A DNA stretch of 64,000 nucleotides, from sequence record PV067732.1; one strand, written 5' to 3'. The translations under genes were made by a program, and so were the position numbers. Shown in pieces: positions 26,073 to 61,284 of the stretch (within the stretch, counting starts at the first letter, position 1; the number at the start of each line of letters is the position of its first letter). The notes under the pieces were generated by a model. That model saw only the letters and a list, made by a program, of their open reading frames with translations, searched no databases and was not told the DNA's origin. This DNA is from Acinetobacter phage vB_AbaS-Bhz15.

Positions 26073-26107
26073 AGTTTACAACTATAATATCTTATGTTAT
26101 TATAGTC
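26073..26107 (+). promoter_or_regulatory. PeSL-like early promoter
   Basis: GTTTACA, a 17-nt spacer, then TATTAT then AGTC, with the 9-bp inverted repeat ACTATAATA..TATTATAGT. Confidence 0.5.
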
Positions 26108-26136
26108 TTATCAAATAAAACATTGAGTAAATTATC

Positions 26137-26352
26137 ATGAAAGCCAAAGTTATTGAATTATTTGAAACTACTGCGTATTGGGTTTTCTTTGTAGGAATCC
26201 TAGTATCTTTATGTACAGCAATCTTTGGTATTTTCATGACTAATGTTGAAATTAAAACGATGGGAATGATTTCCTTGAAATTTATTTTCATATCAATGAT
26301 ATTCGCATTAATCTCAGCAATTATTGCGAATCGTTCAAAATCTGCTGAATAA
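26137..26352 (+). CDS. Small membrane protein
   Basis: 71 aa with two hydrophobic helices. Confidence 0.5.
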   Translation: MKAKVIELFETTAYWVFFVGILVSLCTAIFGIFMTNVEIKTMGMISLKFIFISMIFALISAIIANRSKSAE

Positions 26353-26392
26353 ATATATTTTTAATTTATTGAACCTAACAAAGGAAAACATC

Positions 26393-26641
26393 ATGGCTAC
26401 TCGCATTGCTCTTACTGTATCTCGCGCTGTTGAACAAAACACAAATGTTAGCCGTTTTGTTCTTGATGCTGCAAAAATTATTGGTCTTGTCGAATACTCA
26501 AACGGCTTAGTAGGTGTAACTTTTGAAGCTCGCAATGGCAGTATCATTCAAACATTTGTTGACGAATCATTTGAAACTATTGCTGATGCAATTGAACAAT
26601 CTGATTACGAAGCAGCCGTTCAAGCAGGTTTAGTTCAATAA
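26393..26641 (+). CDS. Hypothetical protein
   Basis: 82 aa. Shine-Dalgarno AAGGAAA 6 nt before the ATG. It is followed by a strong terminator hairpin. Confidence 0.55.
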   Translation: MATRIALTVSRAVEQNTNVSRFVLDAAKIIGLVEYSNGLVGVTFEARNGSIIQTFVDESFETIADAIEQSDYEAAVQAGLVQ

Positions 26642-26655
26642 TTGAATTACCTCGG

Positions 26656-26682
26656 GTTACCTCTTCATTGAGGTAACTTTTT
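26656..26682 (+). terminator. Rho-independent terminator
   Basis: GTTACCTC-TTCATT-GAGGTAAC followed by TTTTT. Confidence 0.8.
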
Positions 26683-26806
26683 AATAACATTGGTAGTAGC
26701 TAATTGGTTAAGCTTGCGCCTGATACTGGAGCATAACCGGCCTGTTAAACCCGGTTGATATGTGGTTCGAGTCCCATCATCTAATGTTATTAAAAAGTTA
26801 CTTTAA

Positions 26807-26881
26807 CGTCGATTAGGTTAGCGGTTAGACCAACAGACTCTAAATCTGGGTGCCGGAGTTCGAATCTCCGATCGACGACCA
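26807..26881 (+). tRNA. tRNA with anticodon CUA (amber-reading suppressor-type)
   Basis: Cloverleaf: acceptor CGTCGAT/ATCGACG, D-stem GGTT/GACC, anticodon stem ACAGA/TCTGG (27-43 is A.G). The anticodon loop CTCTAAA has U33 and A37 and gives anticodon CTA at 26840-26842. T-arm is CGGAG-TTCGAAT-CTCCG. Discriminator A and an encoded CCA. Confidence 0.65.
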
Positions 26882-26886
26882 ATTAT

Positions 26887-26987
26887 GGGTACTGATAGCT
26901 TAAATAGTAAAGCAGCGCAATAGGTGAAACTTCTAGAGTTGATGATCCTCGTTGATTTGGAGGTGCAAGCACTCCCAGTATCCACCA
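26887..26987 (+). ncRNA. tRNA-like small RNA (101 nt) ending in ACCA
   Basis: 7-bp acceptor-like stem GGGTACT/AGTATCC with a G3.U70 pair. D-like hairpin GCTT-AAATAGTA-AAGC. The T-like arm has the unusual loop GGTGCAAGC. There is no canonical anticodon arm. Confidence 0.4.
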
Positions 26988-58489: not shown

Positions 58490-58527
58490 AGCACTATCAA
58501 ATAAATTATCCTTAATGAGGAAATCGA

Positions 58528-58836
58528 ATGAAAATTACTTATCAACCGCATGCTTTAGAAATTACTCTCATTAAAGGCGAAGAACGTGAATCGGCTTCAG
58601 TAGCTATTCCATCATGGGCAACATGTGTAGCTGTTGATCGTAATGGTGTAATTAGTGTTTTTGATGAATATCCAAATCGTTGCAGCGAAGACTGGGATAG
58701 CCTGCTCGGCTCAACATATGAAATTGTTGCAGAAGTCCAAGACGTTGTACGAAATTGGGAAAACACTTGTCATCCTATTGACCAATCACTTAATACTAAA
58801 ACTGAATTAATTTTACTAGTGGGAGAAGAGCCATGA
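58528..58836 (+). CDS. Hypothetical protein
   Basis: 102 aa ORF. Confidence 0.5.
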   Translation: MKITYQPHALEITLIKGEERESASVAIPSWATCVAVDRNGVISVFDEYPNRCSEDWDSLLGSTYEIVAEVQDVVRNWENTCHPIDQSLNTKTELILLVGEEP

Positions 58837-59126
58837 GCTTACTCTTTGGAAGCGTCATAGCAATATTTTTATCTTTGTTCCCTATCGTGATGGCTGCGTA
58901 TTACAAGAGCTCTACTGCAATTATGGTAGCGGTAGTTGTCCTAAATTTATTAGGATTCTTTACAATGGGCGTTACAACTTTTATTGCATTTGTTGTTGCA
59001 GCAATCTCTATTGGCGTAATGAACACCATTAAATCTATTGCATTTGCGTTATTCTTACTTGCAGTAGTAGCAGTTGCCGGAGTTGCGGACCTTGCGCTTA
59101 TTGCAAATATTGTTGGAGCAATTTAA
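58833..59126 (+). CDS. Highly hydrophobic membrane protein (Imm-like position)
   Basis: 97 aa, almost entirely transmembrane segments. It lies between gene 43 and gene 42, where T4 imm lies. Confidence 0.5.
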   Translation: MSLLFGSVIAIFLSLFPIVMAAYYKSSTAIMVAVVVLNLLGFFTMGVTTFIAFVVAAISIGVMNTIKSIAFALFLLAVVAVAGVADLALIANIVGAI

Positions 59127-59479
59127 TGAAGAATTTATTTTTAATTCTAGGCATATCGTTTCTATCATCCGTTAATGCCGCAGTGCCAGGATGTTATAAA
59201 TGGGATACCAAATGTATAGAAAAAGAATATGCACGTCAACAAGCATTAGATGAAGAGATTCGTGACCATCGTCGCCTTATGCAACAACACATCGATGCGG
59301 CTGTTGAATCTGAACGCCCTGTGATGGAACAACTACGAAACAAACCGCAAATTTCACCAGAAGTTATCGCAGTTCAGTTTTGTCGCCAAATGGCAATCGA
59401 TGAGACTGTTTTCCGGTTTGGCTATCTTAATTCAAAACACTATCGTACATTATTAGATACATGCATGGGAGTCAAATAA
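59126..59479 (+). CDS. Secreted protein
   Basis: Signal peptide MKNLFLILGISFLSSVNA. 117 aa. Confidence 0.5.
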   Translation: MKNLFLILGISFLSSVNAAVPGCYKWDTKCIEKEYARQQALDEEIRDHRRLMQQHIDAAVESERPVMEQLRNKPQISPEVIAVQFCRQMAIDETVFRFGYLNSKHYRTLLDTCMGVK

Positions 59480-59480
59480 A

Positions 59481-59933
59481 ATGACTGAAGCAGAAGTTTC
59501 AAAATTAAAACAGGTACATGAATTTGAAGTTAATCATTTGGCACATGCAAACATGGCATGGCAACGGAAATGTGAAGAATTGACTGATTTGCCTAAATAT
59601 GATATTAACAAATTGCCTGAAGGCCGAACACATATTGTACCTGAACGTATTGTTTGTGCTGCAAACCAGTACACAGATCACAATGGAAACAAAGTTGTAA
59701 TTGCAGGTGTTCGCCATGCATGTGATGTGATGTATTCGTCATTTGTTGGACACAATAGCGGTGAAACAATTCTATATCGTGAAACAGAAGTGCAAGGCTT
59801 CTTAACGAATAAATATCGATTTGTTGATCGCCAAGAAGCGTGGAAAATTGCAGCAGAGCAGCAACAAATTGTTTGTCGTGTAGGCGGTGACTCATCTAAA
59901 GGCGGAACTCTTTATTCGGAGAACTTGTACTAA
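59481..59933 (+). CDS. Hypothetical protein
   Basis: 150 aa ORF. Confidence 0.55.
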   Translation: MTEAEVSKLKQVHEFEVNHLAHANMAWQRKCEELTDLPKYDINKLPEGRTHIVPERIVCAANQYTDHNGNKVVIAGVRHACDVMYSSFVGHNSGETILYRETEVQGFLTNKYRFVDRQEAWKIAAEQQQIVCRVGGDSSKGGTLYSENLY

Positions 59934-60253
59934 TGGAAATCGATGAAGATTATGTTGACGTTGATTTTATCAATGAGCAAATCAATGATAAGCATCACAA
60001 AATCCTTTCACTATGCATATCATTGAGTAAAAAGGGCATTGATGCATTCTATTCATATTCACCTCATGTAGATTGGGCTGATGTTAGAGTTTATACTAGT
60101 GGATGGACACAAGACAATGACCCTGATTTAATATTTAGCTTCTTGTGGTCTGACATCACTCGAGACGGGCCTGTAGATTCAGAAACTGTAAGCATAGTGA
60201 TGTCCAAATTTGATAAATGTATTTTTGCATTAGAAGGTCTTTTAAATGATTGA
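59933..60253 (+). CDS. Hypothetical protein
   Basis: 106 aa ORF. Confidence 0.5.
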   Translation: MEIDEDYVDVDFINEQINDKHHKILSLCISLSKKGIDAFYSYSPHVDWADVRVYTSGWTQDNDPDLIFSFLWSDITRDGPVDSETVSIVMSKFDKCIFALEGLLND

Positions 60254-60566
60254 TTTCAAAGAACTGCTGAAAAAGACACCGCGTTTCACTAATGTTGAAG
60301 AAGTCGCACCTATTATTGAAGCAATGGAAACTCTCTTGGCACGAGATATCACGGAACGCCCAGACTCAGATTCATGGCAACGAACACATAGCGCTACTTC
60401 AATGACGGAATCAGCACTCAAGGAAATGTATGAATTCATTTCTAGAGAATATGTTGCGACGGGACGCACCCAAATGCAAGTTGGATTTGAGTCTGAACAA
60501 GAAATCGGACGTGATTGGTTCCCGGCTAAAATAACTTTTACCGTTAGCAGATCTATGCTAACCTAA
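60246..60566 (+). CDS. Hypothetical protein
   Basis: 106 aa ORF. Confidence 0.5.
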   Translation: MIDFKELLKKTPRFTNVEEVAPIIEAMETLLARDITERPDSDSWQRTHSATSMTESALKEMYEFISREYVATGRTQMQVGFESEQEIGRDWFPAKITFTVSRSMLT

Positions 60567-60609
60567 TAATGGTGATATAATAGGTCCATCAACAAACAAT
60601 GAGGTAATT

Positions 60610-61242
60610 ATGGATAACATCGATTTAGCATTAAAAGTAGTTGAAGATCAAAATGATGCATTAGATTATCTTCATACTGCTATCGCAGTAAATGGCGACA
60701 AATATTCAAACATGATTGATATTCTAAAAGTAGTTGCAGCATCAAACTACCGACAACGCATCATGATTACTGGCGTAGGTAAAAATTCAAATCTTGCAAC
60801 TAAAGCGTCTGAAACATTTGCAAGCCTTGGCATCCCATCCATGTATTTGAACACATGCCATTATTCTCATGGTGATGCAGGATTTATCGGGCATGATGAC
60901 GTAGTTATCCATGTTTCACGTTCTGGTAAAACAGAAGAAATGCAATATATGGCGCGTCATTTGAAGACTATTCGTCCTAATGTTCTTCAAATCTTGTTGC
61001 ACTGCAATAGCCAATTAACTGAAGAGCAAAAGGCGCCATTTGACATCGAATTTGGTATTCCGGGCATTGTCGAATGCGATGATAATCATCTTGCACCAAC
61101 AACAAGTACAACAGTGCTATTGGTTTTGTTGGATACTATTGGTGTAATTTTGTCTAAACACCTTAGATTCACTCGTGAAGATTTTTATTCATACCATCCA
61201 GGTGGTTCACTTGGAGCAATGCTCAAATCTGAATCAAAATAA
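60610..61242 (+). CDS. SIS-domain phosphosugar isomerase (KpsF/GutQ/GmhA-like)
   Basis: 210 aa. IMITGVGKNSNLATKASETFASLGIP...VIHVSRSGKTEE is the typical SIS fold signature. Confidence 0.7.
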   Translation: MDNIDLALKVVEDQNDALDYLHTAIAVNGDKYSNMIDILKVVAASNYRQRIMITGVGKNSNLATKASETFASLGIPSMYLNTCHYSHGDAGFIGHDDVVIHVSRSGKTEEMQYMARHLKTIRPNVLQILLHCNSQLTEEQKAPFDIEFGIPGIVECDDNHLAPTTSTTVLLVLLDTIGVILSKHLRFTREDFYSYHPGGSLGAMLKSESK

Positions 61243-61284
61243 TTTACTTTACATAAGAACTATGATATAATTGTCATAGTTCTT
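61243..61284 (+). promoter_or_regulatory. PeSL-like early promoter with the -10 in the hairpin loop
   Basis: TTTACT, a 17-nt spacer, then TATAAT. The 11-bp stem is AAGAACTATGA...TCATAGTTCTT. Confidence 0.6.

Follow-up and report, generated by a model that had tools for sequence, protein, structure and literature searches.

Probable PeSL-type promoter and hairpin cassettes between co-oriented early genes of Acinetobacter phage vB_AbaS-Bhz15

Why does the same promoter, usually with a hairpin beside or across it, recur at one gene boundary after another in the early region of a T4-type phage, and does that hairpin serve the promoter, the gene upstream, or the exchange of genes between phages? 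We examined this question in a 64,000-nt stretch of Acinetobacter phage vB_AbaS-Bhz15 (PV067732.1; G+C 36.4%), hereafter the window, in which an initial annotation had listed ten sites combining an early-type promoter with a stem-loop and had likened them to the promoter-early-stem-loop (PeSL) cassettes of T4-type phages. Between 40000 and 56000, the window shares 99% identity with AB-Navy71 and AbTZA1, two Acinetobacter phages of the genus Hadassahvirus (Straboviridae, Twarogvirinae), and ~80% with members of Lazarusvirus, e.g. AM101 and fHyAci03. Large minus-strand open reading frames (ORFs) of the structural block occupy 1-22.5 kb, and from ~23 kb on every gene lies on the + strand, including a tRNA block, nrdC, genes 49, 55, 47, 46, 45, 44, and 62, regA, a split gene 43, and a sugar/hydroxymethylase cluster.

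Taken together, the results make it probable that these sites are PeSL-type composite cassettes punctuating the co-oriented early genes of this Hadassahvirus, each combining an early promoter with a hairpin of the upstream gene, and recombining with one another. PeSLs are known from other T4-type phages, and what is new here is the Acinetobacter group, for which our literature search found no PeSL description. The cassettes would thus be extended to Acinetobacter T4-type phages (Twarogvirinae), many of which are studied for A. baumannii therapy, and their positions provide a map of likely early transcription units and of sites where unknown genes may be swapped between phages, and even between genera.

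A T4-early-type promoter family and its cassettes

The promoters form a well-defined motif family. Across the window, TTTACW-N17-TATAAT has 12 exact matches, all on the + strand, compared to 0.06 expected (100 shuffles), and 19 matches with one mismatch compared to 4.6 expected, so that the motif search proposed as a check of the initial annotation clearly bore it out. Together with P39284 (18-nt spacer) and P26075 (TATTAT), the 12 exact matches bring the total to 14 strong T4-early-type promoters between 26 and 62 kb: all ten of the sites originally listed hold a promoter-like element of the form described, and four more have their -35 at 30238, 34279, 35353, and 39284. For all 14, a start codon lies 18-41 nt downstream of the -10. 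A further 23 promoters were found in AbTZA1 (8.4-50 kb), all on the + strand and none on the opposite strand, and no early-type promoter was detected in the minus-strand structural block of the window (1-22.5 kb). A generic sigma70 scan of the window showed no overall enrichment (77 vs. 78.7 and 71 vs. 82.3 expected), hence the signal is specific to the T4-early form.

In the aligned consensus, A/T-rich sequence precedes gTTTACw, the 17-nt spacer to TATAAT frequently closes with TGn, and the -10 is followed by the conserved element aGTyyTATCAAAT. A+T content reaches 0.75 over the 16 columns upstream of the -35, compared to 0.64 in the window, with aaa runs in the consensus. In the set of 36 promoters used here, which combines the window and AbTZA1 8.4-50 kb (86 kb of early region), 21 promoters have AG directly after the -10, and 18 have TATCAA downstream (0.4 expected). 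The initial annotation had the -10 usually followed by AGTC or AGCC, which was overstated (5 of its ten sites, 10 of 36 promoters), AGTC being the edge of the longer element aGTyyTATCAAAT. The conserved initial transcribed region TATAAT-aGTyyT-A(+1)TCAAAT exceeds the needs of a -10 and discriminator; it is seen at 26098-26116, 30261-30280, 58484-58503, and 15 other promoters of the window and AbTZA1.

This architecture resembles the "uber" UP/-35/TGn/-10 early promoters of T4 (Hinton 2010, PMC2988021; Nolan 2006, PMC1524935), with which it shares an A-rich, UP-like upstream region, a GTTTAC -35, GT/TGn before a TATAAT -10, pyrimidines at -3 to -1, and a location upstream of early genes and novel ORFs. 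Unlike in T4, the initial transcribed ATCAAAT is strongly conserved here, and activity in Acinetobacter is predicted from consensus, strand, and position. Each cassette would thus contain a strong early promoter of the host sigma70 type, driving the gene 18-41 nt downstream.

The 14 cassettes of the window are listed below, each named by P and the start coordinate of its -35, with the hairpins as predicted from sequence. Differences from orthologues are noted where they bear on pairing.

P26075, 26075-26116, + strand: -35 GTTTACA 26075-26080, -10 TATTAT 26098-26103, 9-bp hairpin 26081-26106 over the -10 (stem P=0.03; no conserved hairpin in AM101), downstream AGTCTTATCAAATA; upstream stop at 26062
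P30238, 30197-30279, + strand: predicted intrinsic terminator 30197-30224 (12 bp and T-run; also annotated in Maestro), -35 30238, -10 30261-30266, weak hairpin 30255-30279 (TTTGATA/TATCAAA)
P34279, 34279-34307, + strand: promoter in the 3' end of an rI-like ORF (stop 34306), no hairpin
P35353, 35315-35381, + strand: predicted intrinsic terminator 35315-35339, 3 nt past the stop (two compensatory changes and one G.T vs. AM101), -35 35353, -10 35376-35381
P36974, 36947-37002, + strand: 16-pair hairpin 36947-36984 (z=-6.9; two compensatory changes in AM101 and fHyAci03), right arm holding the -35 (GTTTAC), T-rich tail, -10 36997-37002
P38401, 38401-38429, + strand: promoter in the 3' end of the upstream ORF, no hairpin
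P39284, 39284-39313, + strand: promoter with 18-nt spacer in the 3' end of the upstream ORF, no hairpin
P41235, 41235-41276, + strand: -35 6 nt past the stop, -10 41258-41263, 15-pair palindrome 41240-41276 (one G.G) centred on the start of the -10 (z=-3.5)
P42306, 42306-42345, + strand: -35 4 nt past the stop, -10 42329-42334, 14-pair palindrome 42312-42345 (one T.G; z=-4.9)
P46160, 46136-46188, + strand: before gene 47, GC-rich predicted terminator 46136-46155, 3 nt past the stop (one compensatory change vs. AM101), -35 46160, -10 46183-46188
P54953, 54953-54992, + strand: after the gp43A stop (54949), -35 54953, -10 54976-54981, perfect 14-bp palindrome 54960-54992 (z=-6.0; C-G to T-A and A-T to G.T in AM101)
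P55354, 55317-55384, + strand: predicted terminator 55317-55334 (UUCG loop and T-run), -35 55354, -10 55377-55382, 7-bp palindrome 55368-55384 over the -10
P58461, 58438-58489, + strand: 18-bp hairpin 58438-58481, 2 nt past the stop (z=-8.0; four compensatory changes vs. AM101; labelled terminator in Maestro), -35 TTTACT in the right arm, -10 58484-58489
P61243, 61243-61284, + strand: -35 directly after the stop, perfect 11-bp arms 61255-61284, loop containing the entire -10 (61266-61271), T-rich tail (z=-4.3); in AM101, wholly different arms form a perfect 12-bp stem around the -10 in the same place; labelled terminator in Maestro

The original description of these sites as intergenic applies to 11 of the 14 cassettes, which begin past the upstream stop, and not to those at 34279, 38401, and 39284, which lie in the 3' end of the upstream ORF. 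The site at 61243 had been placed in front of the sugar cassette and is instead inside it, between the genes for a SIS-domain isomerase and a nucleotidyltransferase. No known RNA family was found at the cassettes, and a search of 24-64 kb against Rfam at gathering thresholds returned tRNAs only.

PeSLs were defined in RB49 and phi1 by a sigma70-like early promoter, A/T-rich sequence ahead of it, and a stem-loop, the position of which separates five subclasses (Arbiol 2010, PMC2839356), and were later described in T4/PST, with the consensus TTTACW-N17-TAYWAT, and in KVP40/nt-1 (Comeau 2014, PMC4122927). The likeness drawn by the initial annotation is supported at this level: the cassettes have the same composite order from stop codon to next ATG (A/T-rich region, sigma70-type early promoter, stem-loop, Shine-Dalgarno sequence (SD), and ATG), are likewise co-oriented and dense in regions of small unknown ORFs, match the T4/PST consensus, and show three of the five published stem-loop positions, i.e. 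upstream, over the -35, and over the -10. They differ in their Acinetobacter host and Twarogvirinae lineage and in the make-up of their stems, which are polyG/polyC in RB49, whereas the -10 stems here are AT-rich, without a U-tract, and have a conserved -6 to +10 element as right arm.

Two neighbouring features can be noted alongside the list. Gene 43 (DNA polymerase; 53441-57898) is split into 43A (53441-54949) and 43B (~56726-57898) by a 1.7-kb insert that contains five small ORFs and two early-promoter cassettes; AM101 has an additional MobE-type HNH endonuclease in this insert, and PhT2 has 369 additional nt at 56627. Just upstream of gp43B, a perfect 12-bp hairpin at 56644-56691 (GGGATATGATAA...TTATCATATCCC), labelled terminator in Maestro, lies over a weak promoter-like TTACCA-N18-TATGAT.

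Pairing, placement, and classes of the hairpins

A hairpin is adjacent to or over the promoter in 11 of the 14 cassettes. Compared to shuffles in which both hexamers were held fixed, minimum free energy (MFE) z-scores range from -3.5 to -8.0 at 36974, 41235, 42306, 46160, 54953, 58461, and 61243, hairpins within the promoter itself are marginal at 26075, 30238, and 55354, and no hairpin was detected at 34279, 38401, and 39284. A separate terminator-like hairpin is found just upstream of the -35 at 30238, 35353, 46160, and 55354. The -10-centred palindromes quoted in the initial annotation are all present in the sequence. Their description as perfect fits 54953 (14 bp) and 61243 (11 bp), while the stems at 36947 and 42304 include a T.G pair and the one at 41234 a G.G. 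Similarly, the proposal of a constant core with differing arms holds for the arms in part of the family only: the exact core TATTGTTATAATAG occurs just twice in the window (41235 and 54953) and three times in the AbTZA1 genome, and the loop at 42306 is 1 nt longer. A scan of viral contigs for TTTAC-N12-TATTGTTATAATAG returned three matches in AbTZA1 and a single match in a Lazarus-type contig; another five were located in unrelated contigs and mostly had no pairing arms, so the core is not a widespread marker.

The hairpins are under selection for pairing. Loop-anchored alignments with the orthologous cassettes of AM101, fHyAci03, and Maestro yielded 12 compensatory double changes and no uncompensated ones, with 104 pairs unchanged and single changes leading to G.T (4), A.C (1), or a mismatch (3). 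Across 17 independent -10-overlapping copies from several sites and genomes, 82.6% of cells pair, compared to 70.5% in shuffles (0 of 500 as high), and this fraction drops to 34-46% when the partner is slid by 1-3 columns; both sides change in 10 of 14 pairs. In many of these copies, the conserved downstream element (…AGTCCTATCAA) doubles as the right arm, and its complement in the spacer (TTGATAGGACT…) forms the left arm.

The same alignments bear on the possibility that a dimeric DNA-binding protein, of the phage or of its host, uses the palindromes as operators to tune or shut off early promoters. Overlap with the -10 is the classic repressor position, and a subset of copies has very similar arms (TTGATAGGAC...GTCCTATCAA) across sites and phages. 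However, other copies pair through unrelated arms (ATGAGAG, AAGAACTATGA, GTGCCATTAT, AAGGCC, GGGAGT) with strong covariation, the centre (~-16 to -8.5) and the loop (3-10 nt) both vary, and the right arm common to that subset coincides with the conserved element downstream of the -10, present likewise in promoters that have no palindrome. We therefore rejected a sequence-specific operator, for which covarying arms and a variable centre and loop leave very little probability.

The position of the hairpin is set by the upstream stop codon, not by the promoter. In nearly all cases the hairpin starts 2-18 nt past that stop, and its relation to the promoter changes with the distance from stop to -35: at 0-12 nt, the hairpin lies over the -10 (14 of 14 cases with a hairpin), at 13-34 nt, it lies over the -35 or a terminator is found immediately upstream, and at 41 nt or more, there is a separate upstream terminator (13 of 13 not over the -10). 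The distance predicts the hairpin class (14 of 14 vs. 0 of 13; Fisher P=5e-8, or 8e-6 with orthologues collapsed), and promoters located inside the upstream ORF have no hairpin in five of five cases. P34279 provides a natural experiment: in the window, the rI-like ORF overlaps this promoter and there is no hairpin, whereas the AM101 ORF terminates just ahead of the promoter, where the -10 is covered by a perfect 10-bp hairpin. The distance rule was replicated with the 23 promoters of AbTZA1 8.4-50 kb (L023). An attenuation of upstream transcription by the stem-loop was proposed for PeSLs and shown in one case (Arbiol 2010, PMC2839356); the distance rule, which we did not find stated in the PeSL papers, argues for a hairpin serving the upstream transcript, and in this goes slightly beyond the published description.

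These observations suggest how a cassette might be assembled. The hairpin would functionally belong to the upstream gene, most likely as a transcript-end element, and would form only in read-through RNA from that gene, given that transcription initiated at the cassette itself is expected to begin within the 3' arm or past it. With ample room, an ordinary intrinsic terminator could be placed upstream of the -35; in a tighter spacer, the terminator would swallow the -35; and where the -35 abuts the stop, the hairpin would come to lie over the -10, with the spacer made complementary to the conserved -6 to +10 element.

Composition separates the hairpins into classes. By their GC-rich stems and U-tracts, the upstream hairpins (GC pairs 0.48, 7.8 T in the 12-nt tail) are predicted intrinsic terminators and the -35-overlapping hairpins (0.36, 6.4 T) appear terminator-like; they also share with intrinsic terminators UUCG/UUUG tetraloops and a location 2-7 nt past stops. 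Hairpins over the -10, on the other hand, have 28% GC pairs and 3.6 T in the 12-nt tail, i.e. the background level, and thus no U-tract. This -10 class differs in kind from the neighbouring terminators and was not filed with them, a second point slightly beyond the published description. Terminator labels were assigned independently by the annotators of Maestro to the hairpins at 58438 and 61255 and to upstream hairpins, and not to those at 54960, 41240, 42312, and 36947. Since it has no U-tract, the -10 class would more probably act in attenuation or in blocking 3' exonucleases than in full termination. The initial annotation had singled out the -10-centred palindromes as a striking sub-class, yet as a novelty this does not stand, since overlap with the -10 is named among the commonest stem-loop positions in RB49 and phi1 (Arbiol 2010, PMC2839356).

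Substitutions within the stems provide an indication of the strand on which pairing takes place. In curated independent -10 stems, G.T pairs outnumber A.C pairs 8 to 1 (P=0.039), an excess that points to the sense strand as the one that folds, in the simplest case as read-through RNA from the upstream gene. The stems of the window alone (5 vs. 2) are too few to decide, and pooled de novo hairpins gave 6 vs. 3.

It is unlikely, in our estimate, that the AT-rich -10 palindromes are functionally separate, whether as elements acting on DNA or the displaced sense strand, where they could gate the firing or shut-off of early promoters or mark a recombination start, or as a new hairpin-only RNA 3'-end element. 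To the specific case of a DNA role we attach a still smaller chance: as a cruciform or non-template hairpin on supercoiled injected DNA, the palindrome would gate the promoter by masking or pre-melting the -10, or would offer a recombination start to endonuclease VII and gp46/47, all of which the phage encodes. Perfect AT-rich palindromes with short loops (54953, 61243, and AbTZA1 22836), the missing terminator U-tracts, two copies not adjacent to a stop codon, and crossover or junction points at or inside palindromes would all fit such a role. Palindrome centres also cluster near -12, but this is expected anyway because TATAATA is nearly self-complementary. Moreover, a cruciform needs pairing of both strands, whereas G.T is tolerated and A.C is not, several stems contain mismatches, the offset between hairpin and promoter is variable and tracks the upstream stop, and the same pattern of constraint is seen in the bona fide terminators of these cassettes.

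Hairpin-form promoters, with a 5-7 bp stem and a 3-nt loop, are used by the virion RNA polymerase of phage N4. As in N4, a small DNA inverted repeat at the promoter could matter by extrusion on supercoiled injected DNA; unlike in N4, where the phage brings its own virion polymerase, the cassettes have a sigma70 -35 and -10, and their pairing favours one strand.

Alternatively, the hairpin could mask the downstream ribosome-binding site (RBS) in RNA arriving from upstream and restrict translation to transcripts initiated at the cassette itself, as for T4 genes e, 49, and soc. The cassettes resemble these T4 cases in having the promoter inside the hairpin, with the predicted start in the 3' arm and an own transcript lacking the 5' arm, and the MFE fold at 54953 extends so that the -35 region pairs with the SD. 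Nevertheless, the arms end 3-24 nt upstream of the SD, and the predicted unpaired probability from SD to AUG differs by +0.05 between read-through and own transcript in the -10 class, compared to +0.16 in hairpin-less controls. With no effect on predicted SD accessibility in the -10 class (27 cassettes analysed), RBS sequestration was rejected and is the least probable of the readings considered. A separate 12-pair hairpin at 43573-43600, which spans both SD and start codon of gp49 (endonuclease VII, 43599-44081), does resemble the RBS-sequestering hairpin of T4 gene 49, and a hairpin at 31820-31868 likewise covers the RBS of a homing endonuclease gene.

We favour a hairpin that serves the upstream transcript, although several points weigh against this reading. 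AbTZA1 32553 and 36303 have a -10 hairpin despite free space upstream; the packing rule is therefore not absolute, and these two exceptions leave room for a promoter-linked role. Four to seven promoters near a stop codon have no hairpin, the asymmetry between G.T and A.C amounts to nine cells, and an RNA-level role is the weakest step for the -10 class because its U-tract is missing. In addition, our literature search found no transcriptome for this phage group, so that promoter and terminator activity is predicted only.

Recombination between cassettes

Since ~45 nt of similar sequence recurs in the same orientation at many gene boundaries, homologous recombination could delete, insert, or swap the gene between two cassettes. 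One locus illustrates this directly:

335-aa gene, 41294-42301, + strand: between cassettes P41235 (left repeat) and P42306 (right repeat), in direct orientation

This gene, which has no Pfam match, is at least 97% identical in AM101 and fHyAci03, compared to ~78% in its flanks, and identity switches at 41189-41233 and, to the Lazarus type, at 42312-42350. Lazarus, Konradin, KARL-1, and others have a 35%-identical allele in the same slot between the same cassettes, and the gene is absent from AB-Navy1, DLP2, and one MD-2021a record. In AB-Navy1 and DLP2, for which the junctions were read, a single hybrid cassette replaces the cassette-gene-cassette arrangement: its left part, through GTTTATTTACATAT, is that of the upstream cassette, its right part, from ATGAGGTTATTGTATATAATAGCCTCAT, is that of the downstream cassette, and the crossover falls within ~14 shared nt between the -35 and the left arm. 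The same replacement of a gene flanked by two cassettes with one hybrid cassette is known for RB49 ORF192, and experiments in RB49 and phi1 demonstrated that flanking PeSLs recombine, with circular products among the outcomes (PMC2839356). As read from these sequences, the hybrid has the signature of PeSL excision or insertion, and directly supports a recombination role at this one locus.

The slot itself lies between a hisS-like gene and nrdC and holds a hypervariable gene, near-identical across two genera while alleles in other relatives show 35% and 28% amino-acid identity. We consider this gene a candidate for a function in host interaction or anti-defence. With three states (allele A, allele B, and empty), the hisS-like/nrdC slot represents a test case for cassette-mediated gene exchange. 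A related-locus search with the slot protein returned AbTZA1 only, and useful relatives came from the phage BLAST collection.

A recombination role agrees as well with junctions in or bordering P38401, P54953, and P55354. PhT2 switches to a 44%-identical allele at 55363, just past the -35 of P55354, and back at the next terminator; in a gene replacement of the Lazarusvirus type, the alignment breaks on the left at 38430, directly past the -10 of P38401; and in L007, a 150-nt conversion patch of the window type ends at 54998, the 3' foot of the 54953 palindrome. A further mosaic switch of PhT2 (39263-39278) is located beside P39284.

Across the region as a whole, however, most indels and mosaic junctions do not fall at cassettes. 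A two-state hidden Markov model applied to identity tracks (30.1-63.3 kb) identified 47 distinct mosaic switch points, of which nine overlap a cassette, compared to 2.7 expected under a uniform null (P=0.001). The coincidence of module boundaries with cassettes, as anticipated by the initial annotation, is thus seen relative to a uniform null but not relative to other non-coding DNA: when only switch intervals touching non-coding DNA are considered, 8 of 17 are at a cassette, compared to 5.2 expected (P=0.11, not significant), and 30 of the 47 junctions are intragenic. Both figures count against a recombination role and would be expected if promoter and hairpin were real and the link to recombination incidental, with cassettes filling intergenic space and marking boundaries without driving the shuffling. 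Indels relative to the relatives also fit this alternative, as most are either homing-endonuclease or tRNA-block events or located at tight gene junctions without a promoter (44630, 47227, 49512, 56627, and 57898), and the association of cassettes with indels is weaker here than the PeSL papers imply. Still, the AB-Navy1/DLP2 hybrid is a precise repeat-mediated product with its crossover in the shared ~14 nt, the PhT2 and Lazarus-type junctions lie inside the promoter itself and not merely in the spacer, and there is the experimental precedent of RB49 and phi1 (PMC2839356). An incidental link is hence the most serious of the alternatives, although on balance we consider it unlikely, and favour cassettes that can recombine with one another.

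The tRNA block varies even among phages that are 97-99% identical, through gain or loss of homing endonuclease and tRNA genes (28985-29415 and 29834-30149), e.g. with 780 nt in AbTZA1 and 329 nt in the window.

Other features of the early region

One of the nine tRNAs located at 26.8-30.2 kb, at 26807-26881, has the anticodon CUA, which would read the amber stop (tRNA-Pyl according to ARAGORN). About 0.8 kb away is a small ORF (27713-27949) to which the annotations of relatives assign either a peptide chain release factor with an RF-1 domain or a peptidyl-tRNA hydrolase.

Several promoter-like elements fall outside of the early-promoter family. A putative MotA-box-like middle promoter, TTGCTTTA-N12-TATAAT, is found at 27955-27990 upstream of the ORF at 28023, and further candidates, with an extended -10 or of MotA-like type, are located past terminators at 32300-32345, 44603-44650, 50365-50385, and 60575-60590. 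In the region 55655-55804, a terminator (55655-55684) is followed by TGTTATAAT, an extended -10 with no good -35, and a ~100-nt GC-rich, strongly structured non-coding stretch (~55700-55790), with no Rfam match, precedes the ORF at 55804.

Finally, a long hairpin at 31820-31868 (TTCCACTTTA...TAAAGTGGAA and inner pairs; spacer dG ~-26) has its 3' end within the SD that serves a homing endonuclease gene (31869-32300), and this predicted structure suggests that the endonuclease may be under translational control.

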